NCBI GenBank assembly: GCA_037440025.1
Contig: JBBIUX010000002.1
Location: forward strand, 82,975-146,974
Direction: 5' to 3'
Length of the DNA: 64,000 bases
From: Candidatus Fraserbacteria bacterium
GTDB lineage: Bacteria; Bipolaricaulota; Bipolaricaulia; RBG-16-55-9; DRXL01
The translations under genes and the position numbers were made by a program. Position 1 is the first letter of the stretch; each line of letters begins with the position of its first letter. This document shows, piece by piece, positions 15,708 to 62,412 of this stretch. The notes below the pieces were generated by a model. It had not been told where the DNA came from. It saw nothing but the letters and a program-made list of their open reading frames with translations, and did no database searches.

Positions 15708-17504
15708 CTATCGCCGCCCGAACTTTTTCTCTAACTCTTCTAACGAATACACCAACACAACCGGTCGTCCATGCGGGCAGCTATACGGGTTCTGCGCTCG
15801 CTTCAATTGGCGCACCAGTTCTTGCATCTCTTCAAGTCGTAACGACTGGTTCTTCACCACGGCGCCTTCGCACGCCACCCGCGCTGCCAACGTCTTGGCA
15901 AGCTCCTCCAGCGTCGGCTCGGCTTCGTGTTCGAGGACGGAGAGCATTTGCTCGATCGCTTCTTTGAAATCGGCCTTGCTCCAGTCGCTCGTCAGCACTT
16001 GCGGCCAAGCTCTCAGAATAAAAGTCCCGCCGCCAAAGTGCTCAAGACCAATTCCCACGCGCTCGTCCAACTCTTTCCGGTGAGCCGCGAGGAGTTCAGC
16101 TTGATCTGGCGGCATTTCAATAGTGACCGGGATCAGGAGCCGCTGGCGCACGATCTTGCCCTCTTTCAGTTGAGCGAGAAATTTTTCGTAGAGAATTCGC
16201 TCGTGGGCCACGTGTTGATCAATGATCTCTAAACCAGACTCCGTCTGAACTAAGATATACGTCCCGTGGAGTTGGCCCAACACGCGAAAGGCAGACACGG
16301 GCTCGGTGGCTGCAGGGGAGGGAGAAGGTGGGGCAGAGAACTGGCGGCGTTCTTCTATCTCTGTGCGCAGATCGAGCTGCGCGGAGGGAGAGGCCCTTAC
16401 TCCTGATTCTTCACCCTCACCTCCATCTCCTCTCCCCTCGGAGGGAGAGGGGAGCAGAGGGGTGAGGGGTGAGGGGCTAGGGGGAGAGGTTGGGAGTTTT
16501 TCAAACCTCGGCATCGCATGAGCTGACGTGAGCGCCCTGGTGATCGCCTGTTTGACAAGAGCTTGCACTTTGATCGGCTCGGCAAAGCGCACTTCGGCCT
16601 TTTGGGGATGCACGTTTACATCGACAGCTTGTGGGGCAATCTCGATGAAGAGAAAGATATACGGGTGCTGCTCGCCCTTGAGAAGACTGTCATAAGCCAT
16701 CGAGATCGCGTAATTGATCTGGGGGTCTTTCACAAAGCGCCCGTTGACGAAGATGAATTGTTCGGTTCTATCTGAGCGCGTCAGCTGAGGTGCGCTGATC
16801 AGCCCGTGAATTTTCAGCCCGGGGATTTCGGCGCGCGCGTCGAGCAGCGCTTTCGCCAGCTCAGCATTGTAGAGATGAGCGATAGCCTGACGCAGATCGC
16901 AGCTTGGCGGGGCGTCGAGAATTTTTTTCGCATTATGTTCAGCGCGAAAGTGTACGCTGGGGTACGCGAGCACAAAACGCTTGATCGTTCGCACAACATG
17001 AAAAAACTCCGTCTTTTCGGATTTCAAGAACTTCCGGCGCGCCGGAAGGTTAAAGAACAGTTCGCGGACATCTATCGTCGTGCCACGGGCGCGCCCAGCA
17101 GCTTTTACAGATGTGATGTGCCCGCCCTCGATCTCAGCGCGCACGCCCTCCGGCGCCGCTTCGCTTTTGCTGATAATCACCGTCTTGGAGACCTCGACGA
17201 TGCTGGCAAGCGCCTCGCCGCGAAAACCGAGCGTGCGAATGTCAAACAGATCGTCTTCAGAAGAGATTTTGCTCGTCGTATGGCGCTGAATGGCTAACAA
17301 TACATCTTCTTGGCTCATGCCCTCGCCGTCGTCAGCGACACAGAGGCGCTGCTCGCCGCTGCCTTCGACGAAGAGTTCAATCTTCGTCGCCCCGGCATCA
17401 AGAGCGTTTTCGATCAATTCCTTGGCAACTGATGCAGGACGCTCGATCACTTCCCCCGCGGCGATCTTGTTCACCAAGTGCGAATCCAAGACTTTGACTT
17501 TCAT
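15708..17504 (-). CDS. mutL: DNA mismatch repair protein MutL
   Basis: 598 aa with N-terminal GHKL ATPase motifs (...IAAGEVIERPASVAKELIENALDAGAT...) and C-terminal dimerisation domain. The linker contains a palindromic-repeat insertion. Confidence 0.9.
   Translation of the reverse strand: MKVKVLDSHLVNKIAAGEVIERPASVAKELIENALDAGATKIELFVEGSGEQRLCVADDGEGMSQEDVLLAIQRHTTSKISSEDDLFDIRTLGFRGEALASIVEVSKTVIISKSEAAPEGVRAEIEGGHITSVKAAGRARGTTIDVRELFFNLPARRKFLKSEKTEFFHVVRTIKRFVLAYPSVHFRAEHNAKKILDAPPSCDLRQAIAHLYNAELAKALLDARAEIPGLKIHGLISAPQLTRSDRTEQFIFVNGRFVKDPQINYAISMAYDSLLKGEQHPYIFLFIEIAPQAVDVNVHPQKAEVRFAEPIKVQALVKQAITRALTSAHAMPRFEKLPTSPPSPSPLTPLLPSPSEGRGDGGEGEESGVRASPSAQLDLRTEIEERRQFSAPPSPSPAATEPVSAFRVLGQLHGTYILVQTESGLEIIDQHVAHERILYEKFLAQLKEGKIVRQRLLIPVTIEMPPDQAELLAAHRKELDERVGIGLEHFGGGTFILRAWPQVLTSDWSKADFKEAIEQMLSVLEHEAEPTLEELAKTLAARVACEGAVVKNQSLRLEEMQELVRQLKRAQNPYSCPHGRPVVLVYSLEELEKKFGRR
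16405..16490. repeat. GC-rich nested palindromic element (copy inside the mutL linker coding sequence)
   Basis: CACCCTCACC...CTCTCCCCTCGGAGGGAGAGGGGAG...GGTGAGGGGTGAGGGG. Encodes the in-frame PSPSPLTPLLPSPSEGRGDGGEGEE stretch of MutL. Confidence 0.55.
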
Positions 17505-17642
17505 GGGCGTTCTCTGTCACAATAGCAAAAGAGAAGGGAGCTGACAAATGACATAGTGAGCGCGACCAAGCTAGGAATTCTAGGACAGTAGATACTAAGC
17601 CTAGTTGCGCGATGCTCGAATCTTCCATATATTGAAAGCATC

Positions 17643-19295
17643 ATGACTCAAGATTACAAGGTGAGAGGAGCAGTTTGGACCCCACAGCCTATCGCTGAAC
17701 TGCTGGTCACCTGGGCTGTTTGCTCGGCTACCGACTCGGTGCTCGATCTAGGCTGTGGTGAAGGCGTCTTTCTCTGCGAAGCCATCAAGAGGCTCAAATC
17801 CTTAGGTGCGCCCGTAGAACAAATTGCCTATCAGCTTTCTGGGGCCGAACTGGATCAGGCTACCTACAAGGAGTTACAAGACAAATTGGAACAGTCACTA
17901 GGTCTGGTCCCGCCTCATGTGTACTCGGACGACTTTTTCAAGGCCGAATTTCCTCAGGTTGAGGCTGTTGTTGGGAACCCACCTTATGTAAGGCGTTGGT
18001 GGCTAGACGGTCTTGATGAAATACGATATGTCATCAGCGATACAGCGATAAACTTCTCTCGTTCTACAGATCTAGCTTGCTATTTCGTAGTTCACGCTGC
18101 GAAATTCTTGAAACCGGGAGGCCGACTGGCGCTCATTCTCACCGATAGTTGGCTTGATATGGACTATGGGGTGAACTTCAAGAGGTTCTTACTCGGCCGC
18201 TTCAAGATCCGTGCGATTATCGGCTTTGAAGCTAAAGTCTTTCCCGAACATCTGATCAAGGCCGTTTTGCTCCTGGCAGAAAAACGGAGTAGTGCTCCTC
18301 AAAACGAAACACACCTTCACACGGCCTTCATCCGCTGGAAAACCCTACCCTCACCTTTGGATTGGGACGCTGCTCTCTCTGAAGGTTCACCCTATGCCAT
18401 CAGTGTTTTGGTTAAACCACAGAGTGACTTAAGGCCTAAGGAATCTTGGGGTAAATTTCTCTACGCGCCCCCAACATATTTTCACCTCGCTCAACACCCC
18501 CGACTAGTACCTTTACAAGCCCTGGCCAAGACGCGCATCGGCTTCCAGAGCTTTTGCAAACAATTCTATATTGTGCCAGCGAGATCTCCATGGCCCGTTG
18601 AACCACAATACCTGAAGCCCCTCATCCACTCGCCGAAAGACATTTCTGGTCCCGTCCTGAGCCCAACACAGCCCGCTAAGCACTTTTTGCTTTACTGTGG
18701 TGAGCCCCAGAGCAAGCTTGCAGGAATGCAGGTGCTCCGTTACATTGAATGGGGAGAGTCCCAGAAAATTATCCCACGAGGGAAGGACCAAGAAGTAATC
18801 GGCTTTCACAACCTGCCCCGTGTTAGACGCGCCAGCAGGCAGCCCTGGTACAACGTGGTACCTGAAGTGAATCGCCGAGGAAGCTGGCCCGTTTTGCTTT
18901 TTCGGCGGATATTCAAACGCTATACAGTAATCTGGAATCAAGCTGGTTGGATCGCAAACGAGAATTTTATTGAGCTGCAGCCTAAGCCTGGAGTAAATCT
19001 GTTATCATTGTTAGCCTTTCTGAGCTCTTCTTTTGCCGAACTGCTTTTCCGAGCCCATGCCCATCGCTACGGAGGGGGGGTCTACAACCTCAACCCAGGA
19101 GACATTCGGAGTGTCCCCGTGCTGAACATCCTGAAATTAAGCGAAAATGAACGAAGGCAATTGGCGACAGCCTACGAGTCTTTCCTGTTTTCGGAAGGGC
19201 GAGATCGCCAAGCGCTGGACCAAGTGATTGCGAGCGTCTTAGGCTTAGAAACACCTTCTTTAGAAGACCAGGCCGAGGAAAAACTTGGAGTCTAA
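17643..19295 (+). CDS. N6-adenine DNA methyltransferase, gamma class (Eco57I/PstI-like type II MTase)
   Basis: Motif I VLDLGCGEGVFL (SAM binding) near aa 35 and motif IV VVGNPPYV (NPPY) near aa 112. A C-terminal region about 400 aa long is consistent with a target-recognition domain. Lower GC than the flanks. Confidence 0.65.
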   Translation: MTQDYKVRGAVWTPQPIAELLVTWAVCSATDSVLDLGCGEGVFLCEAIKRLKSLGAPVEQIAYQLSGAELDQATYKELQDKLEQSLGLVPPHVYSDDFFKAEFPQVEAVVGNPPYVRRWWLDGLDEIRYVISDTAINFSRSTDLACYFVVHAAKFLKPGGRLALILTDSWLDMDYGVNFKRFLLGRFKIRAIIGFEAKVFPEHLIKAVLLLAEKRSSAPQNETHLHTAFIRWKTLPSPLDWDAALSEGSPYAISVLVKPQSDLRPKESWGKFLYAPPTYFHLAQHPRLVPLQALAKTRIGFQSFCKQFYIVPARSPWPVEPQYLKPLIHSPKDISGPVLSPTQPAKHFLLYCGEPQSKLAGMQVLRYIEWGESQKIIPRGKDQEVIGFHNLPRVRRASRQPWYNVVPEVNRRGSWPVLLFRRIFKRYTVIWNQAGWIANENFIELQPKPGVNLLSLLAFLSSSFAELLFRAHAHRYGGGVYNLNPGDIRSVPVLNILKLSENERRQLATAYESFLFSEGRDRQALDQVIASVLGLETPSLEDQAEEKLGV

Positions 19296-20179
19296 TGGCG
19301 ACTGCTCGACAAGAAACGATTCTTAAGGCCATTGCTGCGGTTTTGGAGGCCATTGGCTTCCCTCGCCGCTGGAATACGAGGCAGACAGGGTACTGTCTTC
19401 TGGGGCTGCTTGACAAGACGCCGCGTAAAGGCTTGTTACCCGGCAAGACTTGCTTAAATGACGGGGCTCGCATCCATGACATCTTGGAATTCGTCCGAAA
19501 GACATTCCGCGTTAAGGTTGCCGAAAATACAAGAGAGACCTATCGAAAGACCTCTCTCAAGCAACTATTCGACCACGGACTCATCACGCGAGTGCAATCT
19601 TCAACTAATGATCCCAATACGCATTATATCCTCAACCGGGAATTTGAGAAAACGCTGCGCACCTATCTGGAAGCGCCACTCCAACGCAGAACTCAGATTC
19701 TATCCTCATTTAAGAAACCGTCAGTCATTTCAGAAGAGATCGCTGACAAGCGCGGTGTAAGAGTTACAATAGGGGATAACGTTATAGAACTCAGCCTAGG
19801 CCATCATAACCAGTTGGTCAAGCAGATTATAGAAATCTTTGCATCTGCTTTTGTGGACGATCCGGAAGTTCTGTATATAGGTGACACCGCCCATAAGCTC
19901 AAGTATCTCGGTCAGACAGCTGAGAAACTGGGGATTTTCCTTGATGAACATGCCAAGGCTCCTGATGTAATCTTGTACTCAAAAAGCAAGAACATCGTTT
20001 ATATCATCGAAGCCGTCATCAGCAGCGGGGTTTTCTCGCCAGATCGCGTACAGGATGTCGAGAGGGTCTTGTTCGGAGGGCAAGGGAAACAATTCGGTGT
20101 CGAGTATTTTACGGCCTTTCCAGATCGTGCGACCTTTCGCAAGTTCGTCGAAGAAATTGCTTGGGGGACTCAAGTCTAG
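19295..20179 (+). CDS. Candidate cognate restriction endonuclease (inference from context; no motif-level proof)
   Basis: 294-aa ORF translationally coupled to the MTase (TAATG overlap at 19293-19297), in the same low-GC island. Its size fits type II REases such as the PstI/BsuBI family partners of gamma-class A-MTases. Confidence 0.3.
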   Translation: MATARQETILKAIAAVLEAIGFPRRWNTRQTGYCLLGLLDKTPRKGLLPGKTCLNDGARIHDILEFVRKTFRVKVAENTRETYRKTSLKQLFDHGLITRVQSSTNDPNTHYILNREFEKTLRTYLEAPLQRRTQILSSFKKPSVISEEIADKRGVRVTIGDNVIELSLGHHNQLVKQIIEIFASAFVDDPEVLYIGDTAHKLKYLGQTAEKLGIFLDEHAKAPDVILYSKSKNIVYIIEAVISSGVFSPDRVQDVERVLFGGQGKQFGVEYFTAFPDRATFRKFVEEIAWGTQV

Positions 20180-20226
20180 CTGGCGCAAGAGCCGTTTGGT
20201 GTCATTATCTTTCGGAGATGGAGATG

Positions 20227-20748
20227 AAGCGTGTCTGGTTCGTCGGACTGCTCTGTCTAGCATGGAATGTGAACGCTTCGGCCCAAGAACGCGCGCCCAG
20301 TCTCGGCATCGCTACGAGTTGGATGGAACTAGACAACTTTCAGCCGGCGTTGCCGACGTTTACGATATCTCAGAAAGTTTTGCTGCTGTCGGTACGCGGG
20401 GAGACGCAGATTGAAACGGGGGTGGCGTTGCGCTTGGCCGGAGGCTGGGGCTTTGCGTTTGAGGGGCCTCCTGTGGGAATCGCCCATTATGAGACTGCCC
20501 TAGCTCTCAACTTCCCCTTTGGGCGGGCGAGCGCATCCATTGAGCTTGGCTCTGGGATTCTCCATTTGACGCAGAATGCCGAACAGGCGTGGCGGCTGAC
20601 GGGCTGGGTCGGTGCTGGAGGGAGATTTTCGCTCGTCTCAAAAATATCTGTCTTCTTTGACGTCGTGCCCTTGGTGCTGCTCGACTTCAGCCAACCAAGC
20701 CTGCCGCGGGTTTGGAGCTATCGTGGCGGGGCGCTGTGGCGGTTTTAG
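20227..20748 (+). CDS. Secreted hypothetical protein
   Basis: Start at MKRVWFVGLLCLAWNVNASAQE (signal peptide). The track N-extension is rejected. Confidence 0.5.
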   Translation, partial: KRVWFVGLLCLAWNVNASAQERAPSLGIATSWMELDNFQPALPTFTISQKVLLLSVRGETQIETGVALRLAGGWGFAFEGPPVGIAHYETALALNFPFGRASASIELGSGILHLTQNAEQAWRLTGWVGAGGRFSLVSKISVFFDVVPLVLLDFSQPSLPRVWSYRGGALWRF

Positions 20749-22619
20749 CTTGCCCGCCGCACGCGAACGGTTCCCCCCTGCTTGTGAGCTTCATAAATTC
20801 TCTCCGCGGGCTCGCTTCCGCGGACTAACTTAATACTCCCCGCGCGCGAGACCGACCCGATGAAGACGGGCTCGCCGTCTACTACGATTTCGATATTGCG
20901 CCCGCGCAGACTGGGGTCTAAGTCCACAATCACGTGCCGGTCGCTCACTTCTATGTCTATATCTTGATGGAGCGTCACCTCCATCTCGTCGTAGGAACGG
21001 ACATCAAGCCCGATGCCCAGCTCGGCTTCGAGCTCACGAATTCGGCTGCCCCCGCGGCCTAAGATCACGGGAATCTGGTCTTCGTCAACATAAAGAGTTG
21101 CTTGGTTGTCCGAGCGTATCTCGACAGTGAACCCGCCGCGCACCACCTTGCGCAGCTCGTGTTCTAAAGCTTGCGTTGCTAACCGCCAGACAGGTTTCTC
21201 CGTAGCGACTTCCTTCACTGGCATCACCACAACCTGTTCACCGAAGCTGTAGATTTCATAGACCAACCCTTTGGACTCGAATTCCCTGATCTCGATCACC
21301 GGGCGAGCCAAGTCTGAATCTCCCATGCCGCTGGGCACTTTCACTGTAAACTCGACTTCATAGATCTCTTTCACGTCACCGGCTTCGATGAAGACGACCG
21401 TGTCCACGACTTGCGGGATCATCCCCAAATCAACGCGCCCAATGAGTCGTTGCACGGCGTCAATGCCACGCGTGGCGTGCACCACGCCGATCATCCCCAC
21501 GCCGGCCAAGCGCATGTCGGCAAAGACTTCAAAGTCTTCGTCCACGCGCATCTCGTCAAAAATTGTGTAGTCGGGTCGGACGAGCAATAAAACGTCGGCG
21601 GTCTTCTTCATCTCACCGTTGAGGGCTGTATACTGGGTGATCTCGTCGGAGAGCTCTAGGTCTCTGGGTTTCTCCATTGTTTTAAGAATCCAGCCTGCTT
21701 CTTGGAGATACTCAGCTATCCCCTGGACAAACGTAGACTTGCCTGCCCCCGGTGCCCCGGAGACGAGCACGCCGCGCGAGCGTTCGCGCATGCGCTCCTT
21801 CAGCAAACCAGCATGACTATATTCATCGAGCTTTTTGTGAACGATGGGTCGAACGATAGTGATTTCTAGCGCGTCACTGAAGGGCGGGCGGGCAATGGCG
21901 ACTCGCAGATTTTTGAGCTGTATCACGGTGCTCCCGCCCGCATCCATCTCGATGAACCCGTCGGGATGTCCCTTGGCGACTTCGACGATTTCCCGGGCAA
22001 CTCGTTCCAGCTCTTTTTCCGTCATCAGTTCTTCTTTGAGCGGGACGATCTTCATCCGGCCGGGAGCGCCCCGTTTGGCCTTAGGGCGGGTCTTGGCCCG
22101 CAGGTGCACCGACATCGTTTGCTCATCGAAAAACTGCATGATTTGGAGCTGGTCGAGCCCACGGGCTCCTGCGGCGGCCCCCAAGAAGCGTGTCGGCAAC
22201 CCTTGGGCTTCGCTGACTAAAGACTGGCTGCGGCTGCTGGTGACGAGAACAGCGTCTTCTTCTTCAGCGACAGCGCGCACCATCGCGTGAATCTCGCCGG
22301 TCTCCGCAAGGCGCAACGGGTCGAACCGTGGCCGATCTCCCTTGAACACCAACTCGATCTGGCCTGCCCACGCGAGCTGTTGCATCTGTTTCAGTTCATT
22401 GAGGCCGGCATACCCCGTCTCTTGCCCACGCACAGCTTGGGCTTCCAATAACGCGAGCACAGCATGGGGAACGATAAAAACAGCTTTAGGGAATTTGTTA
22501 TTACGAATTTCTTCAGTGATGCGACCATCAACAATGATGCTCGCATCCAAGACATATCGTTCGGCTCTTGCAGCGTCTTCGTTTGGCAAAGCCTCTTTAC
22601 GAGGTCTAGCTCCAGGCAT
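20745..22619 (-). CDS. PIN domain - PhoH/PilT-like P-loop ATPase - KH domain protein (COG1855-like)
   Basis: N-terminal PIN (...YVLDASIIVDGRI...), central Walker A GAPGAGKST, and C-terminal KH (...VILGRGGSRIRELEAELG...). Confidence 0.7.
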   Translation of the reverse strand: MPGARPRKEALPNEDAARAERYVLDASIIVDGRITEEIRNNKFPKAVFIVPHAVLALLEAQAVRGQETGYAGLNELKQMQQLAWAGQIELVFKGDRPRFDPLRLAETGEIHAMVRAVAEEEDAVLVTSSRSQSLVSEAQGLPTRFLGAAAGARGLDQLQIMQFFDEQTMSVHLRAKTRPKAKRGAPGRMKIVPLKEELMTEKELERVAREIVEVAKGHPDGFIEMDAGGSTVIQLKNLRVAIARPPFSDALEITIVRPIVHKKLDEYSHAGLLKERMRERSRGVLVSGAPGAGKSTFVQGIAEYLQEAGWILKTMEKPRDLELSDEITQYTALNGEMKKTADVLLLVRPDYTIFDEMRVDEDFEVFADMRLAGVGMIGVVHATRGIDAVQRLIGRVDLGMIPQVVDTVVFIEAGDVKEIYEVEFTVKVPSGMGDSDLARPVIEIREFESKGLVYEIYSFGEQVVVMPVKEVATEKPVWRLATQALEHELRKVVRGGFTVEIRSDNQATLYVDEDQIPVILGRGGSRIRELEAELGIGLDVRSYDEMEVTLHQDIDIEVSDRHVIVDLDPSLRGRNIEIVVDGEPVFIGSVSRAGSIKLVRGSEPAERIYEAHKQGGTVRVRRAS

Positions 22620-22890
22620 ATTTCTCCCCCAAGAACACGGCAACTTTTTCTAAAAACTTCTGATCTTTCCCGGTAAACGCGTCAAGTGTGTCGCTGTCAA
22701 TGTCAATCTCTCCGACGACTTTTGAGTTGCTGAAAATGGGGACATAGTAAGACACATGATCTCGTAGAAGAGTGACCGTTTTGTGCAGGGCCGTCTCGAA
22801 ATCCGCTTGGTTGATCTCCTGGCGTAGCACGCTCAATAAGTCCATATTCCCTCCAGAACAAGCATAGCAAGGACTGACGAGTGCGCGCAA
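22606..22890 (-). CDS. Short GAF-like protein resembling only the C-terminal half of free Met-(R)-sulfoxide reductase (possible remnant)
   Basis: ...YYVPIFSNSKVVGEIDIDSDTLDAFTGKDQKFLEKVA resembles the fRMsr C-terminus. The ORF can be at most about 96 aa because gatA ends at 22897. Confidence 0.4.
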   Translation of the reverse strand: MRALVSPCYACSGGNMDLLSVLRQEINQADFETALHKTVTLLRDHVSYYVPIFSNSKVVGEIDIDSDTLDAFTGKDQKFLEKVAVFLGEKYAWS

Positions 22891-22896
22891 GCGCCC

Positions 22897-24303
22897 TTAT
22901 CGAGTTGTTTGTTCAAAAGCGTAGGCAGCTCGGAGCATCTTGGCTTCTTGCAGTTTATCTCCGACGATTTGCAGTCCAAAGGGCAAGCCCCCGACTGTGC
23001 CACCGGGGACAGAGATCGCCGGGATACCGGCCAGGCTCGCCGGTACCGTAAAAATATCCGAGAGATACATCGCTAAGGGATCGTCTACTTTCTCCCCCAG
23101 CTTGAAGGCCGGCGTCGGCGACGTAGGACAGATAATAACATCTACGGTCTTGAAGACCGTATCGAAATCTTGATGGATGAGCGCGCGGACTTTTTGAGCT
23201 TTGCCGTACCAGGCTTCGTAATACCCCGCGCTGAGCGCGTAGGTCCCGATCATAATGCGTCGCTTCACTTCCGGCCCAAAGCCCTTGTCGCGGCTCTCGG
23301 AGAACATTTCTTCCACTGAGGCGTTGCTCGCCCGTTGTGAGTAACGCACCCCGTCGTAGCGGGCCAAGTTGGCACTCGCTTCAGAAGATGAGATCAGATA
23401 GTACGCCGGGATCGTGTGCTGGCTATGAGGCAGCGAGATTTCCACAATCTGCGCTCCCAATTCTTGAAATGTCTTCCCCCAGTCGTTCACGCGCGCTTGG
23501 GCTTCTCCACTGAGGTCCGTCAAATACTCCTTCGGCAGTCCGATTTTGAAACCCTCGATATCGAATCCCAGCTCGCTCATGTAGTCATCGGTGCTGCGCT
23601 CGATGCTCGTTGAATCGTGTAGATCGCGGCCGGTGATAATATTTAGGACCAAAGCACAGTCCCGCACGTTCTTTGTGATTGGACCAATCTGATCTAAAGA
23701 ACTAGCGAACGCTACCAACCCATAGCGTGACACCAGCCCGTAGGTTGGCTTGAGCCCGACGACCCCACAGAGCGCCGAGGGCTGTCGGATCGAGCCTCCG
23801 GTGTCTGAACCGAGAGCACAGAGCGCTTCATGAGCTGCGACAGCTGCTGCTGAACCTCCTGAAGATCCGCCGGGGACGCGGGTCATATCGTGCGGGTTGC
23901 GCGTGGGGAAGAAGGCGCTGTTCTCTGTTGAAGACCCCATGCCGAACTCATCTAGATTTGTCTTGCCCAGCACAGTTGCACCGGCGTCTCTGAGATTTTT
24001 CACGGCAGTCGCCTCAAAGATCGGCTCAAAGTGCTCTAGAAATTTCGAGCCACAGGTCGTCTTGAAACCGATTGTCGAGATGTTGTCTTTCACTGAGATA
24101 GGCAAGCCATGCAATGAAGTATGAGCCAAACGCTCCACCTCACGAAGCATATCTTCCTGAGGAGCGAGGCTCACATACGCTTTGATCTGTTCTTCTGTAA
24201 CAGAGATAGCACGATAGAGATCAACAATCACCTCACGAGGGTGAATCTCCCCCTTGGTTATGAGATCAAGGAGCTCGTGCAGGGGCTTTTCGTTGAGATT
24301 CAT
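22897..24303 (-). CDS. gatA: Glutamyl-tRNA(Gln)/aspartyl-tRNA(Asn) amidotransferase subunit A
   Basis: Start at [15 protein letters not shown]...; amidase signature ...[13 protein letters not shown].... The track N-extension is rejected. Confidence 0.9.
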
Positions 24304-24310
24304 AAGAAAA

Positions 24311-24397
24311 TGGTGCCGAGGGAGGGACTTGAACCCACACGGGATTGCTCCCATACGGTCCTGAACCGTACGCGTCTGCCAGTTCCGCCACCCCGGC
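24311..24397 (-). tRNA. tRNA-Leu (anticodon CAG)
   Basis: Reverse complement: GCCGGGGTGGCGGAACTGGCAGACGCGTACGGTTCAGGACCGTATGGGAGCAATCCCGTGTGGGTTCAAGTCCCTCCCTCGGCACCA. It has a 7-bp acceptor stem, anticodon loop TTCAGGA, a long variable arm, T-loop GGTTCAAGTCC and a CCA end. Confidence 0.85.
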
Positions 24398-24458
24398 GCT
24401 GAAATATTCTAACGGCCTGCACTTGGCTTGTCAAACGGTTTCAAGCTATACTAGCTCC

Positions 24459-25352
24459 ATGCCTGACGAATGCTTCGTCGTGGTCAATCTCATCGCGGGT
24501 CGGGGACGATGTCAGCGGCTCTGGCCGGCTATTGAGCACGCCTTAAAAAATTCAAAGCTCTCATTTCGCCACGAGTTCACTGAAGCCCCGGGAGCTGCTA
24601 CTGCAGTCGCCCGACGTGTCGCCCAAGACTTTGCTACGGTGATCGCCGTCGGCGGCGATGGCACTATTCACGAAGTGGCCGCTGGGCTGATGCACACGCC
24701 TGCCAAACTCGGCATCATCCCGGCCGGTACAGGGAACGACTTCGTCAAGATGCTGGGCATTCCTCCACTGGATGTGCGTCGCGCCGTCGCGATCCTCGAA
24801 GCAGGGCAAACGAAGCGTGTAGACGTCGGTCGCATCGGCGAGCGCTATTTTGTCAATGGGCTTGGTGTCGGATTAGACGGAGCAGTCGCATGGCGGGTCT
24901 TTCGACGCTGGCATTGGCCAGGGCTGGCTCGCTGGACATATTTGTACGCCGCGACCCGCGAGGCGCTGTTCTTTCGCAGCTCTGAGTTAGAGATCAAAGC
25001 TCCGGACTGGCGAGAATCGGGCAAACTAATGATGGTCGGGGCATCCAATGGGCGCTACCACGGAGGAGACTTTAAGCTCGCCCCAGATGCCGAGATTGAC
25101 GACGGACTGTTTGATGTCTATATGATTTCTGACATGTACCCGCTGAAGCGAATTATAGAGATTCCGAAGGTGCGCCGGGGTGAGCACTTGGGATTGCCCG
25201 AAGTGCAGATCAAGCGCGCGCCACGGGTTGAGATCCTTTCAGAGAAGCCCTTACTAGGACATCTTGATGGCGAGCCGCTGGAGTTTTCTGCAGGAACGTT
25301 ACATATCGAGCTGCTGCCGAAGGCCCTAGAAGTGGTTGTGGGAGCGAACTAA
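24459..25352 (+). CDS. Diacylglycerol kinase-family lipid kinase (YegS/BmrU-like)
   Basis: Start at MPDECFVVVNLIAGRG; ...IAVGGDGTIHEVAAGL... DAGK catalytic motif. The track N-extension overlapping tRNA-Leu is rejected. Confidence 0.85.
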   Translation: MPDECFVVVNLIAGRGRCQRLWPAIEHALKNSKLSFRHEFTEAPGAATAVARRVAQDFATVIAVGGDGTIHEVAAGLMHTPAKLGIIPAGTGNDFVKMLGIPPLDVRRAVAILEAGQTKRVDVGRIGERYFVNGLGVGLDGAVAWRVFRRWHWPGLARWTYLYAATREALFFRSSELEIKAPDWRESGKLMMVGASNGRYHGGDFKLAPDAEIDDGLFDVYMISDMYPLKRIIEIPKVRRGEHLGLPEVQIKRAPRVEILSEKPLLGHLDGEPLEFSAGTLHIELLPKALEVVVGAN

Positions 25353-25358
25353 ACGTTC

Positions 25359-25529
25359 ATGGCCAAACAAAAGAAGTTCCGAGTTCCTTTGAATGCAGAG
25401 AGCACTGTTTTCTCACGGGTGGAATTTGCAATCGAGCATGGGCAAGTATTGCGCTTTGTCGTTCAAGATGATCTAAAGAAGAACTGGCACGTTTATTACG
25501 AGCGTTTTCAACGAGGTGAGTACGGATGA
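25359..25529 (+). CDS. Small hypothetical ORF (56 aa), absent from the ORF track
   Basis: ATG 25359 to TGA 25529: MAKQKKFRVPLNAESTVFSRVEFAIEHGQVLRFVVQDDLKKNWHVYYERFQRGEYG. ATGA overlap with the next ORF. Lower-GC segment. Confidence 0.3.
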   Translation: MAKQKKFRVPLNAESTVFSRVEFAIEHGQVLRFVVQDDLKKNWHVYYERFQRGEYG

Positions 25530-25825
25530 AACAAGGGCCAGAGAAAGCTATGTCGGTCGTACCCCAAGAAGAGATATGGATCCAGCGGCATACAGATTTG
25601 AGCGATCAGTTTACACGCTACTGCTTGGAACACCCTGAAATTCTCGAACAGATGCCGGATGATTCTGTCCTTTGTATGCAAGTCGAAGGAGATGACGAGT
25701 TTAACACCTGGGCACGCTCTTGGATTCAGAAATCAGCAAAGAAATCTGTGATCACCTACATTACGGTCAAGAAGCTTCGGCCGATTCGGTCGTTGATCGA
25801 GAAGGTCGAGATTGAGTTGGCCTAG
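25526..25825 (+). CDS. Hypothetical protein (99 aa)
   Basis: ORF coupled to the preceding small ORF. No recognisable family. Confidence 0.45.
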   Translation: MKQGPEKAMSVVPQEEIWIQRHTDLSDQFTRYCLEHPEILEQMPDDSVLCMQVEGDDEFNTWARSWIQKSAKKSVITYITVKKLRPIRSLIEKVEIELA

Positions 25826-25831
25826 TTAGAT

Positions 25832-26227
25832 ATGCAACGCAAGAACATCCCCACTGGCACGCCATGGGAACCGGTTGTTGGGTATTCTCGCGCTGTCCGC
25901 GTTGGACCATATGTTCATGTCGCGGGGACGACAGCTCTTGATTGGGCGACCGGCACGCTCATCAGCCCAGGCGATCCGTATGCGCAAACGGTTCAAGCTC
26001 TCAAGAACATAGAATCAGCTCTACAAAAAGCTGGGGCCGATCTGAAAGATGTCGTTCGCACGCGCATCTACGTCACGAACATTGATGATTGGGAGAAGAT
26101 CGGAAGAGCGCACGGCCAGTTCTTTGGCGAGATTCACCCCGCAACGACGATGGTCGAAGTCAGCCGTCTAGTGAATGCAGATATGCTCGTAGAAATCGAA
26201 GCGGATGCTGTCATCAGTGAAGAATAA
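25832..26227 (+). CDS. RidA/YjgF-family reactive-intermediate deaminase
   Basis: 131 aa, ...[25 protein letters not shown]...[12 protein letters not shown]..., the RidA family. Confidence 0.8.
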
Positions 26228-26232
26228 AAACG

Positions 26233-26307
26233 TGGAGCGGGCGACGGGATTCGAACCCGCGACACCTGGCTTGGGAAGCCAGTACTCTACCGCTGAGCTA
26301 CGCCCGC
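26233..26307 (-). tRNA. tRNA-Gly (anticodon CCC)
   Basis: Reverse complement: GCGGGCGTAGCTCAGCGGTAGAGTACTGGCTTCCCAAGCCAGGTGTCGCGGGTTCGAATCCCGTCGCCCGCTCCA. Anticodon loop TTCCCAA. Confidence 0.85.
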
Positions 26308-26360
26308 AACTACGCTCATTATAGCACCTCACTCTTACGGTGACAAGACCACGAAGAAGC

Positions 26361-27545
26361 TCATTGTTTCCGCAATATCTCGATGGGCAGGAGCCTGCGC
26401 CCACCCAAAAACTCCAACGTTGCTCCCCCGCCTGTCGAGAAATGAATATTTTTCGCGTTCTTGAGAACGCTGTGGTGGAGAGCCGCGGCTGTGTCACCTC
26501 CACCAATAATGGCAAAAGTGTTTGATTCAGCAATGGCCCGTGCGACCTCGCGGGTCCCGGTATCAAAGGGTGGCTTCTCGAACTTTCCTAAAGGGCCGGC
26601 CCAGACGATGGTCTTCGCGGTGTGGACGCGTCTGCTGAAAGCTTTGACGGTCTCTGGCCCAATATCCCAGCCTTGCCAACCGTCGGGGATTTCTTTCGCC
26701 GGTGCAACGGTCTTCTGCACCTCCCCTGTAGGAGATTCTTGAACGATGTGCACGTCGCTGGGTAGCACCATCTCCGTCCCGTGCTCTTGAGCTTTGCGCA
26801 GACAACCGTTGGCTTCCTCCAACATCTTTTCGTCCAGAAGCGAGTTGCCCACGTCTGCCCCTTGGGCTTTTAACAGCGTAAAGGCCACCCCTCCGCCAAT
26901 CAGAAATGCGTCAACCTTCCCGATCAGCTCTTTGAGCACTCCGATCTTATCTGTGAGCTTTGCCCCGCCGATGATGGCGAGAAAGGGATGTGGAGGATTT
27001 TGGGTCGCTCGACTGAGCATCGTGACTTCTTTCTCCAAGAGCAGACCAGCTGCAGACGGCAAGAACCGTGCCACCCCGTAGGTGCTGGCATGAGCACGAT
27101 GGGCCGTCCCGAAGGCGTCATTCACGTAGCGATCGGCCAAGCGCGCCAACTCCCGCGCGAAGCTTTCATCGTTGGCCTCCTCTTGGGGATAGAAGCGCAC
27201 GTTCTCTAACAAAACTACATCTCCGGGTTTCATCTGAGTAACGGCGCGTTGGACCGACGGTCCAATGCAGTCGTCGAGTTTGGTGACGGGGCGCTTGAGC
27301 AACTCTGAAAAACGATGTGCCACGGGGCCAAGTCGTAATTCTGAAAGGACCTTTCCCTGCGGACGGCCTAAGTGCGAAACTAAGATAACCTTGGCGCGGC
27401 GTTGGAGAAGGTATTCAACGGTCGGTAGGCTTTCGCGGAGACGAGTATCGTCTGTTACTCGTCCGTCTTTGAGCGGAACGTTATAATCTACCCGAACTAA
27501 AACGCGTTTTTCTGTGACATCCAGCTCACGCAGACTGCGGAGCAT
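26361..27545 (-). CDS. pgk: Phosphoglycerate kinase
   Basis: 394 aa, ...RVDYNVPLKDGRVTDDTRL...ILVSHLGRP... Confidence 0.93.
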   Translation of the reverse strand: MLRSLRELDVTEKRVLVRVDYNVPLKDGRVTDDTRLRESLPTVEYLLQRRAKVILVSHLGRPQGKVLSELRLGPVAHRFSELLKRPVTKLDDCIGPSVQRAVTQMKPGDVVLLENVRFYPQEEANDESFARELARLADRYVNDAFGTAHRAHASTYGVARFLPSAAGLLLEKEVTMLSRATQNPPHPFLAIIGGAKLTDKIGVLKELIGKVDAFLIGGGVAFTLLKAQGADVGNSLLDEKMLEEANGCLRKAQEHGTEMVLPSDVHIVQESPTGEVQKTVAPAKEIPDGWQGWDIGPETVKAFSRRVHTAKTIVWAGPLGKFEKPPFDTGTREVARAIAESNTFAIIGGGDTAAALHHSVLKNAKNIHFSTGGGATLEFLGGRRLLPIEILRKQ

Positions 27546-30091: not shown

Positions 30092-32110
30092 ATGGCGTTC
30101 GCCTGGACTCCTACACCCGAGTACATCGAGCACAGCAACATCTGGCGCTTCATGCAGAAATATAATATCACAGACTACGCCGAGCTTGTCCGACGCTCGA
30201 CCGACGAGATCGAATGGTTCTGGGACGCCATCGTCAAAGAGTTGCAAATCGAGTTCTTCACACCCTACAGACAAGTCTTAGACGTCTCCCAGGGGATCCC
30301 GTGGGCCAAGTGGTTCGTCGGCGGGAAGATCAATATTGCCCACAATTGCGTAGATAAGCATGCTCACGCTCGCCCAGAGAAGATCGCGCTCATCTGGGAG
30401 GGGGAAGACCGAAGCGTCCGGCGGCTCACCTACCGAGAACTCTACGAGCAGACGAATCGCTTGGCCAACGCCCTCAAGAGACTGGGTATCGTGAAGGGAG
30501 ATCGTGTCGGGATCTTTATGCCCATGCTGCCCGAGACGGTCATGGCTCTCTTAGCGTGCGCCAAGATTGGTGCGATCTGTACCCCGATCTTTTCGGGTTT
30601 TGGCGCTCACGCCGTGGCCGCACGGCTGAATGACTGTGAGGCCAAGCTCCTGATCACGGCTGAGAGCTTCTCGCGCAAGGGAGCGCGCATCGAGATGGGC
30701 AAGATCGCCCAAGAGGCCGTCAGGCTCAGCCCGACGGTAGAGCATCTGATTGTCTGTGAGCAGCGGGCCCTCACCCCCGACCCGGACCTAACCCCAACCC
30801 CTTCCCTAACTAAGGGAAGGGGCTCCCCTCCCTCTTTAGGGGAGGGGCTGGGGGAGAGGTCAAGGGAAGGGGGCCAGGGGGGTAGGTCGGTCAGATGGCA
30901 CGAGCTCACTCAGCGAGAACCTTCAGAATGCCCCACAGAGCAGACAGACTCCGAAGACCCGTTTATGATCATCTATACGTCGGGGACGACGGGCCGGCCC
31001 AAGGGCGCTGTGCACGTTCATGGGGGATTTTTGGTGAAGATCGCTCAAGAAGTGGCCCATCAAGTCGATCTCCATCCCGAAGATATTCTCTACTGGGTGA
31101 CGGACATGGGTTGGATCATGGGGCCCTGGGAGGTCGTGGGCGGGTTGGCCTTGGGTGGCACAGTCTTTCTCTATGAGGGAGCACCGGACTATCCCCACGT
31201 AGACCGATTATGGGAGATGGTCGAGCGCCATAAGATCTCTATTTTGGGTATTTCGCCGACGCTGATTCGGGCGCTGATGAAGTTCGGCGAAGGTCCGATC
31301 AAAAAGCATAATCTCAGCAGTCTGAGAATTTTAGCTTCGACGGGGGAGCCGTGGAACCCCGCTCCGTGGCTATGGTTCTTTGAGCACGTCGGCGGCAGGC
31401 GCTGTCCTATTATTAATCTTTCCGGAGGGACGGAGGTCGGGGCGTGCTTCTTATCGCCCTTGCCCATTACGCCCTTAAAACCCTGTGCCTTGGTCGGCCC
31501 GGCGTTGGGGATGGCTGTAGACGTCTTCGACGCGGACGGCCATCCGTTGCGTGGCGGCGTTGGGGAGTTAGTCTGTAAAAAGCCTTGGCCGGGGATGACT
31601 CGCGGGGTCTGGAAGGACCCGGAGCGATATATTCAGACCTATTGGTCGCGCTGGGAGAACGTCTGGGTGCATGGGGACTGGGCTTCGATTGACGCGGACG
31701 GCTTGTGGTATCTGCACGGGCGCAGTGACGATACGATAAAAATTGCGGGGAAGCGTCTTGGGCCGGCGGAGATCGAGTCTGTGTTGGTGGGCCATCCAGG
31801 AGTGGCCGAGTCGGCAGCCATCGGCGTACCGCACGAATTGAAGGGTGAAGCCATCTGGTGCTATGCCGTTTTGAGGCCAGGCTATGAGCCCAATGACGCT
31901 TTGAGGAAGGAGCTACGCGAGCGGGTCATAGAAGCCTTGGGCAAGTCCTTTGCGCCGGAGCAGATAAAATTTGTCCAAGAGCTGCCCAAGACGCGCAACG
32001 CCAAGATTCTCCGCCGGGCGATCCGCGCGAAAGTTTTGGGCCAAGAGTTGGGCGATCTTTCTAATCTTGAGAACCCTCAGGCGTTGGAGGAGATCGCTCA
32101 AGCTGTGTGA
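30092..32110 (+). CDS. acs: Acetyl-CoA synthetase-like AMP-forming acyl-CoA synthetase
   Basis: 672 aa with the AMP-binding motif IIYTSGTTGRPKG and ACS-like N- and C-termini. A low-complexity insertion of about 35 aa is encoded by a palindromic repeat. Confidence 0.85.
   Translation: MAFAWTPTPEYIEHSNIWRFMQKYNITDYAELVRRSTDEIEWFWDAIVKELQIEFFTPYRQVLDVSQGIPWAKWFVGGKINIAHNCVDKHAHARPEKIALIWEGEDRSVRRLTYRELYEQTNRLANALKRLGIVKGDRVGIFMPMLPETVMALLACAKIGAICTPIFSGFGAHAVAARLNDCEAKLLITAESFSRKGARIEMGKIAQEAVRLSPTVEHLIVCEQRALTPDPDLTPTPSLTKGRGSPPSLGEGLGERSREGGQGGRSVRWHELTQREPSECPTEQTDSEDPFMIIYTSGTTGRPKGAVHVHGGFLVKIAQEVAHQVDLHPEDILYWVTDMGWIMGPWEVVGGLALGGTVFLYEGAPDYPHVDRLWEMVERHKISILGISPTLIRALMKFGEGPIKKHNLSSLRILASTGEPWNPAPWLWFFEHVGGRRCPIINLSGGTEVGACFLSPLPITPLKPCALVGPALGMAVDVFDADGHPLRGGVGELVCKKPWPGMTRGVWKDPERYIQTYWSRWENVWVHGDWASIDADGLWYLHGRSDDTIKIAGKRLGPAEIESVLVGHPGVAESAAIGVPHELKGEAIWCYAVLRPGYEPNDALRKELRERVIEALGKSFAPEQIKFVQELPKTRNAKILRRAIRAKVLGQELGDLSNLENPQALEEIAQAV
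30770..30895. repeat. GC-rich nested palindromic element (copy in-frame inside acs)
   Basis: Hairpins CCCCTTCCC-taactaa-GGGAAGGGG and CCCCTCCC-tcttta-GGGGAGGGG, with outer CCGGACCTAACCCC / GGGGGGTAGGTCGG. Translated as ...TPTPSLTKGRGSPPSLGEGLGERSREGGQGG.... Confidence 0.6.
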
Positions 32111-35709: not shown

Positions 35710-35796
35710 CCCCCTCACCCCGGATGGAGGTTCGCAAGTTCGCGAGTTCACGGGTTCGAACTCGTGAACCTTCGAACCCCCTTGAGGGGTGAGGGT
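35710..35796. repeat. GC-rich nested palindromic element (intergenic copy)
   Basis: CCCCTCACCCC ... inner palindrome GAGTTCACGGGTTCGAACTCGTGAAC ... GGGGTGAGGGTG. Confidence 0.55.
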
Positions 35797-40382: not shown

Positions 40383-40500
40383 CAACTCTACCCTCTTCCT
40401 GGAAGGGAGGGGGACGGACGGGTTGGGGGGCTGTTGAAGGACGCCATCCGAAGTGCTAGAATGAAACCGTGCAGGAGTTATTCGATGAGGAGGATGTAGG

Positions 40501-53756: not shown

Positions 53757-53765
53757 TCTGGCTCC

Positions 53766-55190: not shown

Positions 55191-55191
55191 C

Positions 55192-56519: not shown

Positions 56520-56587
56520 AATCTTTCTCCTCGTTTTATGCGCTGATTATAACAGGGGCTCTGAGGCCTGTCAAACACGGTAAAGCC

Positions 56588-60671: not shown

Positions 60672-60789
60672 CTTACCCTCCCAGGGGTACTACTATAACT
60701 GCGCCCTAGCGTCTTGTCAAACGACGTACATGGAAGCCTTCTCTTGCGCAGCCGCATGGAAAAGAGTACAATACGCTTGGAGGTGGGAG

Positions 60790-61371
60790 ATGGCATCCCA
60801 CAGGGGCGCGCCCGTGCGCGAGCACATAGCATACCAGTTGCTCTATGAGCTGAGAGACGCCTCTGTCGGGCGGCGCACGCTTGTGGAGCGAACGGGGTTG
60901 ACCGAGAGCGTTGTGCGCACGGAATTAGAGAAACTCGCAACCCTGCGGCTCGTTGTTTTCTCCAAGCTGGGTACCGTACTGACAGAGCGCGGGCAGCAGA
61001 TGCTCTTGGCAAAGCTCAACTCGGTCGTAGACGTTCGAGAAGTTCGCCTGCACAACCTGATGCTCGATCGCTACAACCGCATGGCCCAAGTGCGTGGGGC
61101 AGCCACCGGCTTTCAAACGTGGCTCTATCGAGATATAGCGATCCGAGAGGGCGCAACGGCAGCGCTCTTTCTCACCAAGCAGAAGGAGGCAATATACTTC
61201 ATCGAGGAAGAAAGACCCCTTGCGGAGCACAACCCCTACGATAGCCGGCTGCTCGAACAGGCGTTTCCACAGCTACGCAACGGTGATCTGATCGTGATCG
61301 TCTTTGGACCGGCTCGAGGAGCGGCGGCGCGCGGGCTGTGGGCCGTCTTGTGGGCTTTGGCATCGAAATAG
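60790..61371 (+). CDS. Winged-helix domain protein, hypothetical regulator
   Basis: Start MASHRGAP (GGAGGTGGGAG RBS). N-terminal ...HIAYQLLYELRDASVGRRTLVERTGLTESVVRTELEKL... is wHTH-like. Appears co-transcribed with the ABC importer. The track N-extension is rejected. Confidence 0.45.
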   Translation: MASHRGAPVREHIAYQLLYELRDASVGRRTLVERTGLTESVVRTELEKLATLRLVVFSKLGTVLTERGQQMLLAKLNSVVDVREVRLHNLMLDRYNRMAQVRGAATGFQTWLYRDIAIREGATAALFLTKQKEAIYFIEEERPLAEHNPYDSRLLEQAFPQLRNGDLIVIVFGPARGAAARGLWAVLWALASK

Positions 61372-61404
61372 AGTAATTCTCACAGAACAGTAAGGAGGAG
61401 TTCT

Positions 61405-62295
61405 ATGCGCTGGACACGCTGGAAGTTGTTCGGGCTGGTCGCTTTGTTGCTTGTAGGGATAGTCGTGCCGTCGCTGGCAGATTACCCTGTCACAATCACC
61501 GACGACCGCGGCAAACAGATCACTATTACAAAGCGTCCTGAGAGAATTGTCGTCGCCGGGACGCCGCTCTACACGGAGATCCTCATCGATCTAGGGGCTC
61601 TAAATCGTATTGTCGGCGTGAGCGAGTCGGCCGATAACCCCCCGGAAGTAGCCAACGTGCCGCGCGTCGGGCCGGCCTTCAACCCCAATGTCGAAGCGAT
61701 CATCTCGCTCAAGCCCGATGTCGTCTTTGGGGCGATTGGAGCGATACGCGATACCCTCGAACGGGCCGGCTTGATCGTCGTCAGCTTGGGCAAGAAGGGG
61801 AGCGGAGCCATTGACAGCGTCACTGAGATTTTTAGAACGATTCGCTCAGTTGGGCTCGTCATCGAGGGCGACACCAAGAGAGCCGATACGCTGATCGGCA
61901 AGATCGCCGAGGAGATCGTGACGATAGAAGGGACGGTACTAGACAGATTCAAGCCGACGGTGGCGATTCTTTATCCGGCGGGGGAGCAGCCGCCGTTTGC
62001 TGCCGGTCGCGGCACCCCGGAGAACGAGATCGTGCTGCGCGCCGGGGGGATTAATATCTTCCCCGACGTCGCAGATTATAAACAAGTGAGCTTTGAGGAG
62101 ATCGTCAAGCGCGACCCAAGCGTCATCTTCACTGACCCATTGCTGATCCCGCTGATTACGCAGCATCGTCTGCTGCAAGGGGTGAAGGCCGTGCGAGAGA
62201 AGCGCGTCTACGGGATCGGGGCGTCGCAGTGGGTCAGCTCGCGCATCGCGCAGACGATCAAGACCGTCGCGGACTTGTTGCATCCGAATCGGTAA
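61405..62295 (+). CDS. ABC transporter periplasmic substrate-binding protein (iron-siderophore/cobalamin class, BtuF/FepB-like)
   Basis: Signal/anchor MRWTRWKLFGLVALLLVGIVVPSLA; class III (TroA-like) SBP fold sequence features. Confidence 0.8.
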   Translation: MRWTRWKLFGLVALLLVGIVVPSLADYPVTITDDRGKQITITKRPERIVVAGTPLYTEILIDLGALNRIVGVSESADNPPEVANVPRVGPAFNPNVEAIISLKPDVVFGAIGAIRDTLERAGLIVVSLGKKGSGAIDSVTEIFRTIRSVGLVIEGDTKRADTLIGKIAEEIVTIEGTVLDRFKPTVAILYPAGEQPPFAAGRGTPENEIVLRAGGINIFPDVADYKQVSFEEIVKRDPSVIFTDPLLIPLITQHRLLQGVKAVREKRVYGIGASQWVSSRIAQTIKTVADLLHPNR

Positions 62296-62303
62296 GGATG
62301 GTT

Positions 62304-62412
62304 GGCCCTCACCCCCTGTGACCTCTCCCCCGACCCCTCCCCTAAAGAGGGAGGGGAGTTCCCCCTTCCCTTTAGGGAAGGGGGCTTGGGGGTTAGGGCG
62401 GGGGTGAGGGCC
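62304..62412. repeat. GC-rich nested palindromic element (intergenic, between the SBP and permease genes)
   Basis: Outer GGCCCTCACCCCC / GGGGGTGAGGGCC. Inner hairpins CCCCTCCC-ctaaaga-GGGAGGGG and CCCCCTTCCC-ttta-GGGAAGGGGG. Confidence 0.6.

Follow-up and report, generated by a model that had tools for sequence, protein, structure and literature searches.

The 64,000-nt stretch analysed here, referred to as the window, is part of contig JBBIUX010000002.1 of an uncultured Candidatus Fraserbacteria bacterium (Bipolaricaulota) and contains GC-rich nested palindromes at four loci, near 16.4, 30.8, 35.7 and 62.3 kb. Two of the loci lie between genes, and two lie in frame within the intact genes mutL and acs. 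The four loci are modular composites, not four copies of one element. It is considered likely that they represent a modular family of the BoxC/PIT/TM-ECO class, with the coding copies as tolerated passengers and with movement of a hairpin or gene-conversion type. In-frame palindromic repeats themselves are already known. Of greatest interest are the differing cores found at conserved junctions in related genomes, and the in-frame BoxC-like elements in housekeeping genes of several phyla.

Modular make-up of the four loci

The basic unit consists of CCCTCACCCC, a short spacer, a C-rich arm, a loop, a G-rich arm, a spacer and GGGGTGAGGG. The central hairpin is replaceable by other palindromic modules, either a double-hairpin unit of about 80 nt or a GTTCG-rich palindrome. 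The loci, their parts and the host genes are as follows (window coordinates; a strand is given for genes only; ORF, open reading frame; aa, amino acids).

15708-17504, minus strand: mutL, ORF of 598 aa with intact translation, host of the 16.4 kb element
16412-16470: canonical single-hairpin BoxC-like element in the MutL interdomain linker (aa 345-365)
16414-16423, 16427-16454 and 16459-16476: left stem CCCTCACCTC, inner hairpin, and right stem GGGGTGAGGG (tandemly duplicated) of the mutL element
16477-16494: G-rich tail CTAGGGGGAGAGGTTGGG adjoining the mutL element, resembling the GGGGGAGAGGTC terminus of the 80-nt unit
30092-32110, plus strand: acs, ORF of 672 aa with intact translation, host of the 30.8 kb element
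30765-30892: composite element in acs (aa ~225-268)
30765-30778, 30785-30861 and 30863-30892: left outer stem GGGCCCTCACCCCC, 80-nt unit (hairpins 30798-30822 and 30825-30847), and degenerate G-rich right arm of the acs element
35710-35795: intergenic composite, BoxC-like outer stems (35710-35721 and 35786-35795) around a GTTCG-rich palindrome (35729-35778)
62304-62412: intergenic composite, perfect outer stems (62304-62316 and 62400-62412) around an inverted 80-nt unit (62320-62399; hairpins 62334-62356 and 62361-62384)

The sequences CCCTCACCCC and GGGGTGAGGG occur eight times in the 64 kb, against 0.10 expected from shuffled sequences, and hairpins of the form CCCCTYCCC-N3-10-GGGRAGGGG occur twice, against none expected. 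A scan of the window placed polypyrimidine/polypurine hairpins at 16.4, 30.8 and 62.3 kb only. A covariance model, R1, was built from 20 single-form elements, all of them from other genomes and none from the window. It recognises the mutL copy over its full length (56 bits, E=1e-10), the acs copy at E=0.007 and the 62.3 kb copy at E=0.015, and reaches E=0.9 at 35.7 kb, where it matches the outer stems only. The marks of the broad nested-palindrome family, that is outer CCCTCACCCC/GGGGTGAGGG stems, an inner C-rich/G-rich hairpin and recognition by R1, are thereby found in the window.

The initial annotation had read these loci as four copies of one shared element. The palindromes are present at all four places and form a dispersed nested-palindrome family, but the hairpins named there, GGGAGGGG and GGGAAGGGG, are confined to the acs and 62.3 kb copies. 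Over 40 nt these two copies, which lie in opposite orientation, are 95% identical, and they have the double-hairpin unit of about 80 nt in common, bounded by GACCTAACCCC and GGGGGAGAGGTC; three aligned copies of the unit give 89% column identity. The mutL copy differs in its left stem and in its hairpin: it is a single nested hairpin with the layout CCCTCACCTC … CTCCTCTCCCCTC-gga-GGGAGAGGGGAG … GGGGTGAGGG and the inner hairpin CCTCTCCCC/GGGGAGAGG. The acs copy lacks a clean right outer stem, and the 35.7 kb copy has only its outer stems in common with the family, its GTTCG-rich core being unrelated. The termini of the window elements are GGCCCTCACCCC and GGGGTGAGGGCC, inverted repeats as in any palindrome.

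As to the proposed cruciform or RNA hairpin structures, the single-stranded DNA fold of the intergenic copies stands well apart from shuffles (z=-6.7 at 62.3 kb, z=-6.0 at 35.7 kb); for the coding copies the signal is weak (z=-2.8 and -0.8). The predicted RNA folds reach -93 kcal/mol (z=-5.4) at 62.3 kb and -56 kcal/mol at 35.7 kb. At the level of motifs, sequences of G-quadruplex (G4) type are present in three of the loci, including 16443-16469 and 62375-62398, and the window as a whole contains six against three expected, which is no significant enrichment. In a search of the window against Rfam 15 only two tRNAs reached the gathering score, and in E-value mode the elements gave nothing other than sub-threshold miRNA-hairpin noise.

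A fifth stretch had been described as a possible partial copy and is rejected as a family member (R1 E=4.7, fold z=-0.43).

40390-40440: doubtful remnant, not counted as a member; a short CCCTCTTCC/GGAAGGGAGGG hairpin and a G-rich run

The spacer in which it lies is variable in relatives, with CCCCTTCCCTAAGGGA in L123, another palindrome in L125 and nothing in L001. The FtsH encoded next to it (40501-42657, plus strand) is long (718 aa), some 220 residues separating its FtsH_ext match (22-72) from the AAA domain (298-434); by eye the extra segment is not element-like. A solitary exact CCCTCACCCC at 14812-14821, within an ORF at 14661-15506 (plus strand) and followed by GTCTGGGG, has neither a partner stem nor an R1 match and may be due to chance or be a decayed remnant.

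In-frame copies in mutL and acs

Both peptides quoted in the initial annotation for the coding copies are read in frame within intact ORFs, and the two inserts fall in structurally permissive segments. In MutL, the Pfam domains HATPase_c_3 (25-115), DNA_mis_repair (208-325) and MutL_C (409-555) flank the insert, which is located in the gap between 325 and 409; the peptide region reads PSPSPLTPLLPSPSEGRGDGGEGEE. The MutL sequence P0121 is 100% identical to that of the window, and all relatives show a hypervariable linker. Next to mutL, at 17643-20179 (plus strand), there is a type II restriction-modification pair, with an N6_Mtase/Eco57I-type methylase of 550 aa and a BsuBI/PstI-type endonuclease of 294 aa, as identified from Pfam marks on the gene table of the Logan assembly L219.

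That assembly (run SRR11582161) was made independently and is 100% identical to window positions 11655-27504 (15.85 kb), mutL copy included, so the mutL copy is not an assembly artefact. For the inserts in general, the idea that they are assembly chimeras at repeats or products of low-complexity slippage, not inserted elements, is scarcely credible. The right stem of the mutL element is tandemly duplicated, tandem half-elements occur in L027 (see below), and assemblies of metagenome-assembled genomes (MAGs) do break at repeats: in L220, a relative with a 98%-identical FecCD gene, the first position of the Logan contig coincides with the right boundary of the 62.3 kb element (…ccaggaaggtgcgccATG), which suggests that short-read assemblies break at such repeats. 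Against this stand, besides the identity of L219, the reappearance of inserts of the same kinds across independent samples and assemblies, and the match of palindromic sequences to a model drawn from other genomes, which is not a product of slippage.

The homologues of Acs have ACAS_N, AMP-binding and AMP-binding_C domains. Aligned with solved structures, Acs forms two blocks, aa 6-222 and aa 276-660; the insert is skipped and the alignment resumes after it, with 53 residues between the blocks standing in place of 25 in 8rpk. An AlphaFold2 (AF2) model predicts the insert to be disordered, with a predicted local distance difference test score (pLDDT) of about 30 for aa 228-263, between strands at 218-222 and 265-268, and of 84-96 in the flanks. 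This model is mediocre overall (mean pLDDT 64, shallow alignment) and was therefore used solely for the contrast between insert and flanks. The peptide region is SLTKGRGSPPSLGEGLGER. One of the three frames per strand is open through the acs element, and on the acs strand the open frame is that of acs. In 33 orthologues of Acs the segment before the AMP-binding motif is hypervariable, while the rest of the protein is about 80% identical.

Other palindromes occupy the same protein loops in relatives. In L124 the Acs loop contains, at the DNA level, a palindrome of the GTTCG type that forms the core of the 35.7 kb copy; in L125 it contains a third palindrome, encoding …FVWTVRLAAEGGKTNGPGEAW…. 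The MutL linkers of relatives contain the same palindrome families as the Acs loops, and L061, a MAG labelled Thermotogae with a MutL of Bipolaricaulota type, has a complete BoxC-like element in this linker.

Four families can be told apart when the BoxC-like elements are counted as the first. The second, in which GTTCGNNA octamers and their complement are repeated, forms the window core at 35729-35778 and occupies the Acs loop, in frame, in other lineages of Bipolaricaulota (L124 ~10690-10770; Acs P0013, P0019 and P0025; peptide …SQVRQFRTFEPSNPRT…). The third, …CCAGACTTCGTCTGGAC…GTCCAGGCGAAGCCTGG… with the peptide FAWTVRRAAAGGTTNSPDEVW, is found in L125 at 10640-10710 and 20850-20900 and, in different lineages, in the Acs loop (P0021, P0024, P0027), the MutL linker (P0146, P0147, P0153) and the serA-ftsH spacer. 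The fourth is AT-richer, GTGCAACATTTT / AAAATGTTGCAC, encodes the peptides VQHF and KMLH, and occurs in Acs of L123 and in MutL P0122.

It is very improbable that the in-gene segments are adaptive as protein, selected as flexible linkers in MutL and Acs, with the palindromic DNA as a secondary matter. Their richness in Pro, Gly, Ser and Glu is that of natural linkers, and inserts are found in the same two loops across many lineages. Between lineages the peptides show no conservation, and the loops hold unrelated palindrome families or, in some, nothing at all. What is conserved is the DNA palindrome, and the same elements also stand in intergenic DNA.

Empty, filled and differently cored sites in relatives

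The nearest homologues of Acs, MutL and the FecCD permease belong to Candidatus Bipolaricaulota (Acetothermia), and comparison with these relatives gives different states of the same sites. In acs, the loop measures 11 nt in L001, where the protein is 83% identical and the site is empty, against about 139 nt in the window, a net gain of 129 nt or 43 codons. At 35.7 kb the site is empty in L123 and L124, and in L001 the junctions of the window copy hold a canonical element whose core is CCCCTCTCCC/GGGGAGAGGGG. In L125 a canonical element lies at another position of the same spacer, which makes that insertion an independent one. At 62.3 kb the site is empty in L223, with a spacer of 34 nt, and L221 and L222 carry a canonical core between the outer stems of the window copy, with identical junctions. 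The core thus differs at two sites, 35.7 and 62.3 kb, while outer stems and junctions stay identical, a pattern read here as core exchange in place.

Variability between close relatives, as known for BoxC/PIT/TM-ECO loci, was found at acs, 35.7 and 62.3 kb. Copies are gained, lost and remodelled over the time that divides relatives whose adjoining genes are about 75-95% identical in nucleotides. None of the four sites for which an empty orthologue was compared, those at acs, 35.7 kb and 62.3 kb included, shows a target-site duplication, and a cut-and-paste transposase making target duplications is unlikely. The suggestion that the elements are mobile, in the manner of transposable elements of the miniature inverted-repeat type (MITEs), or act as recombination hotspots survives in part: presence/absence polymorphism fits mobility or recombinational turnover, and transposition of MITE type is not supported, target-site duplications being absent.

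Both intergenic copies are placed between a stop codon and the next ribosome-binding site (RBS). The neighbours at 62.3 kb are as follows.

61405-62295: substrate-binding-protein gene
62426-63412: FecCD permease gene

A terminator role of the intergenic hairpins was rejected, as no T tracts follow them. A maintained function of the DNA or RNA structure (intrastrand triplex, G-quadruplex/hairpin switch, mRNA stabiliser or translation brake between cistrons), with the coding copies as incidental, is quite unlikely. The exact placement between stop codon and RBS, the extreme predicted stability of the RNA hairpins, the G4 motifs in three loci and the compensatory changes that keep pairing (see below) agree with it, as do the triplex formed by TM-ECO in vitro and its link to local genomic instability (PMC4666352) and the proposed G4/hairpin switch (PMC5100583). 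On the other side, close relatives that share the operon structure lack an element at these sites, terminator-like T tracts are absent, G4 motifs are not enriched window-wide, and arm-to-arm copying also yields symmetric changes. Earlier in vivo tests of PIT, in so far as they are cited in PMC4666352, found no promoter, terminator or polymerase-blocking activity.

Wider family, known repeats and origin

An exact-pattern scan of one genome per species, CCCTCACCCC-N31-91-GGGGTGAGGG, found at least 120 loci in many phyla. The matches listed come from Chloroflexota (the most), Bipolaricaulota, Proteobacteria including Enterobacter, Cyanobacteria, Acidobacteriota, Planctomycetota, Armatimonadota and others, and nearly all of those listed have an inner CCCCTCTCCC-loop-GGGAGAGGGG hairpin, in a single form of about 54 nt or a double form of 80-110 nt. 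The architecture common to the phyla is CCCTCACCCC–CCCCTCTCCC–loop–GGGAGAGGGG–GGGGTGAGGG. Among 107 aligned matches, six of seven inner pairs show changes on both sides with pairing kept (37 cells against 15.5 in shuffles); for DNA palindromes such paired changes are ambiguous, because copying from arm to arm gives the same signal. Viral contigs gave 16 pattern matches only, with no sign of carriage by phages. A strict hairpin scan (arms ≥14 nt, ≤2 mismatches) found most loci not above shuffles and is too insensitive for a census.

R1 was also run on 0.95 Mb of acs neighbourhoods that had not been chosen for the element; a metagenome scan with Acs gave at least 80 loci, and of the 80 listed 4 are close (Bipolaricaulota) and the other 76 served as background. 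An exact look-up of the window Acs in the assembly index found no record. Matches were restricted to Bipolaricaulota, with five in 22 kb of L125 and one in L001; there were none in L123, L124 or the 76 loci of other phyla. The BoxC-like class is expanded in some Bipolaricaulota lineages, that of the window included, and its distribution is patchy.

In-frame BoxC-like palindromes were also seen in genes of other phyla (L018, L025, L049, L104, L072, L085, L089, L082, L084 and L061), where only those cases were kept in which 100 aa or more lie to either side of the element. Six were checked with Pfam and have domains flanking or spanning the insert: IleRS (Methylibium), a carboxyltransferase (Gemmataceae), a UvrA-like protein (L049, a betaproteobacterium), ValRS (Chloroflexi), PrmC and LigA. 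The L104 insert, identified by eye, occupies the same UvrA-like site as that of L049. Recognition was likewise by eye only for a UvrD/AddA-like helicase and an HsdR-like protein, both of which have several inserts, and for the MutL of L061. The in-frame copies have the peptide signature P-[SLH]-P … G-[ERV]-G. Stop-to-stop ORFs spanning an element were rejected as a test of intragenic position; they yield too many cases, since elements that are free of stops in several frames run together with the ORFs beside them.

The HsdR-like ORF (L084 4017-7814, a Victivallales MAG) contains four BoxC-like inserts, two of which flank a segment of about 110 aa that by eye resembles a DUF559/Vsr-type endonuclease domain, giving the impression of a module introduced between elements. 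In an Anaerolineales MAG (L027 6309-6415) a tandem array within a long ORF has three times the left half (CCCCTCACCCCTTCCCCTCTCCCAGCGGGAGAG), followed by stacked GGGTGAGGG right arms, and may have arisen by slippage or snap-back amplification of half-elements.

Among known repeats, BoxC of E. coli, which dates from the 1990s, was later described anew as PIT elements and as TM-ECO. TM-ECO has the pattern CCCTCNCCC N3-6 GGGNGAGGG N3 GGGNGAGGG, and 3610 copies of it were reported from 262 genomes of Proteobacteria (Holder et al. 2015, PMC4666352). In vitro an oligonucleotide of this sequence folds into an intrastrand triplex; the loci show unusual rearrangement from one E. coli strain to another, and no link to mobile elements was found (PMC4666352). 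BoxC/PIT/TM-ECO sequences have also been described as a switch between G-quadruplex, hairpin and duplex (Kaplan et al. 2016, PMC5100583). The window copies share with this class the arm order (CCCTCNCCC – loop – GGGNGAGGG – short spacer – GGGTGAGGG), the frequent inverted pairing that gives a nested palindrome, the lack of a known transposase, the multi-copy state, the variability between close strains and the tie to local rearrangement. They differ in having C/G runs of 4-5 nt, the inner arms CCCCTCCCC, CCCCTTCCC and CCTCTCCCC, foreign modules between the outer stems and a host among the Bipolaricaulota. Two of the four loci lie inside intact ORFs, whereas the copies in E. coli K-12 are reported to be always intergenic (PMC4666352). 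The comparison with E. coli rests on published TM-ECO sequences, because a blastn search with the mutL element against E. coli genomes gave no match, probably owing to the low-complexity filter and the short query. The literature, as far as it was covered, which was incompletely, contains no such repeats for Bipolaricaulota and no in-frame copies of BoxC type.

Resemblance to the Rickettsia palindromic elements (RPEs) is functional only. RPEs are AT-rich, about 100-150 bp long and encode a conserved peptide. Like them, the window elements stand in frame in unrelated housekeeping genes, are translated, judging from the ORFs, and tolerated at the surface, and also occur between genes. Unlike them, they have a peptide that varies with the frame in use, one of several; RPEs occur only in Rickettsia, host and base composition differ, and no sequence relationship is evident by eye. 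Cyanobacterial small dispersed repeats and nested MITEs are likewise tiny palindromic modules, nested and occasionally located in genes, with unrelated sequences.

The initial annotation had cited Rickettsia for in-frame palindromes, described them as rarely reported in high-GC genomes, and called the host genes essential. MutL and Acs are housekeeping proteins but not strictly essential, and bacteria other than Rickettsia are also known to have in-frame palindromic repeats (PMC10969869, PMC3184786). Intragenic repetitive extragenic palindromes (REPs) occur in several species, many of them in genes of replication and repair such as uvrA, uvrD, polA and recBCD (Di Nocera et al. 2013, PMC3733652).

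REPs and their inverted-pair form, REPINs, are similar in kind, being short GC-rich palindromes, often inverted dimers, mostly intergenic with a minority in frame in genes; the repair-gene hosts are parallel too, with MutL here and UvrA, LigA and UvrD-like genes elsewhere. Mobilisation of the window elements in trans by a REP-associated tyrosine transposase (RAYT, IS200/IS605-like, acting on single-stranded hairpins without target duplication) is considered unlikely. It would account for the hairpin architecture, the inverted doublets, the nesting in other palindromes, the missing duplications at empty-versus-filled sites and the lineage-specific bursts, and intragenic REPs in repair genes are documented (PMC3733652). 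A relative also has a REP-like palindrome with a GTAG tag, GTAGGGGCGTACGGCCGTACGCCCCTAC, at L124 11932-11965 just downstream of acs; L124 has no BoxC-like copies in 22 kb. The window elements, by contrast, have neither a GTAG nor a CGTC terminal tag, and no Y1 transposase was found among the 10 window ORFs scanned with Pfam, which make up part of the window. REP families are normally species-specific, whereas the BoxC-like sequence recurs across phyla, and no association between TM-ECO and mobile elements was found by Holder et al. (PMC4666352).

The preferred explanation, of a modular BoxC/PIT/TM-ECO-class family with passenger copies in genes, would work as follows. Insertion or remodelling would be blind to coding, and purifying selection would keep those copies that are in frame, free of stops and located in segments without structural constraint. 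The survivors would be the copy in the disordered MutL linker and the copy in an Acs surface hairpin just before the AMP-binding motif, read as disordered spacers rich in Pro, Ser, Gly, Glu and Arg and having no function of their own; the coding copies are probably neutral passenger DNA. The intergenic copies may act as RNA hairpins between cistrons and, if REP elements are taken as a guide, could make the upstream mRNA more stable or reduce translation downstream. Movement probably passes through intermediates of hairpin or single-strand form, or relies on ectopic gene conversion or on template switching at the conserved outer stems of 10-13 nt, and this is the weakest step.

Several points weigh against this explanation. 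A search for the strict TM-ECO pattern (fuzzy regular expression, both strands, second loop 2-4 nt) gave no window matches at ≤2 substitutions; at 3 substitutions it finds the acs and 62.3 kb copies only, against none in shuffles. The strict pattern does not fit the window copies, which are filed as a variant of the broader family. The analysis identified no enzyme or mechanism of movement. The only transposase-like ORF of the window, at 12007-12747 (minus strand), is a truncated IS256/Mutator-family fragment of 246 aa that matches profile positions 18-121 of 379, with nothing evident to connect it with the palindromes. That the inserts are translated is deduced from the intact ORFs, and the fold scores of both coding copies are weak. 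Repeated use of the same loops could reflect targeting and not tolerance alone. The near-identity of the 54-nt sequence across phyla is not explained by a simple selfish-repeat model, and a function at the level of protein or DNA structure may yet exist.

The BoxC/PIT/TM-ECO repeats have been known for about 30 years without an accepted origin, mechanism of spread or function. The locus described here, together with its relatives, offers natural before-and-after states, namely empty, canonical and differently cored versions of the same site, as well as in-frame copies in intact MutL and Acs and unrelated palindrome families competing for the same loops. A hairpin or gene-conversion route can now be tested against transposition, and so can the tolerance of enzymes for disordered insertions of 20-45 residues. 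In practice, such inserts inflate the apparent low-complexity regions of MAG proteomes and break assemblies. As a tentative extension, BoxC-like palindromes are possibly a pan-bacterial class that repeatedly colonises the same permissive loops (Acs and MutL here; IleRS, ValRS, LigA, UvrA-like proteins and PrmC elsewhere) and is remodelled in place by core exchange between conserved outer stems, which would imply a transposase-independent, hairpin-templated mechanism of copying or gene conversion. If so, these elements would provide a general route by which protein loops and linkers arise.

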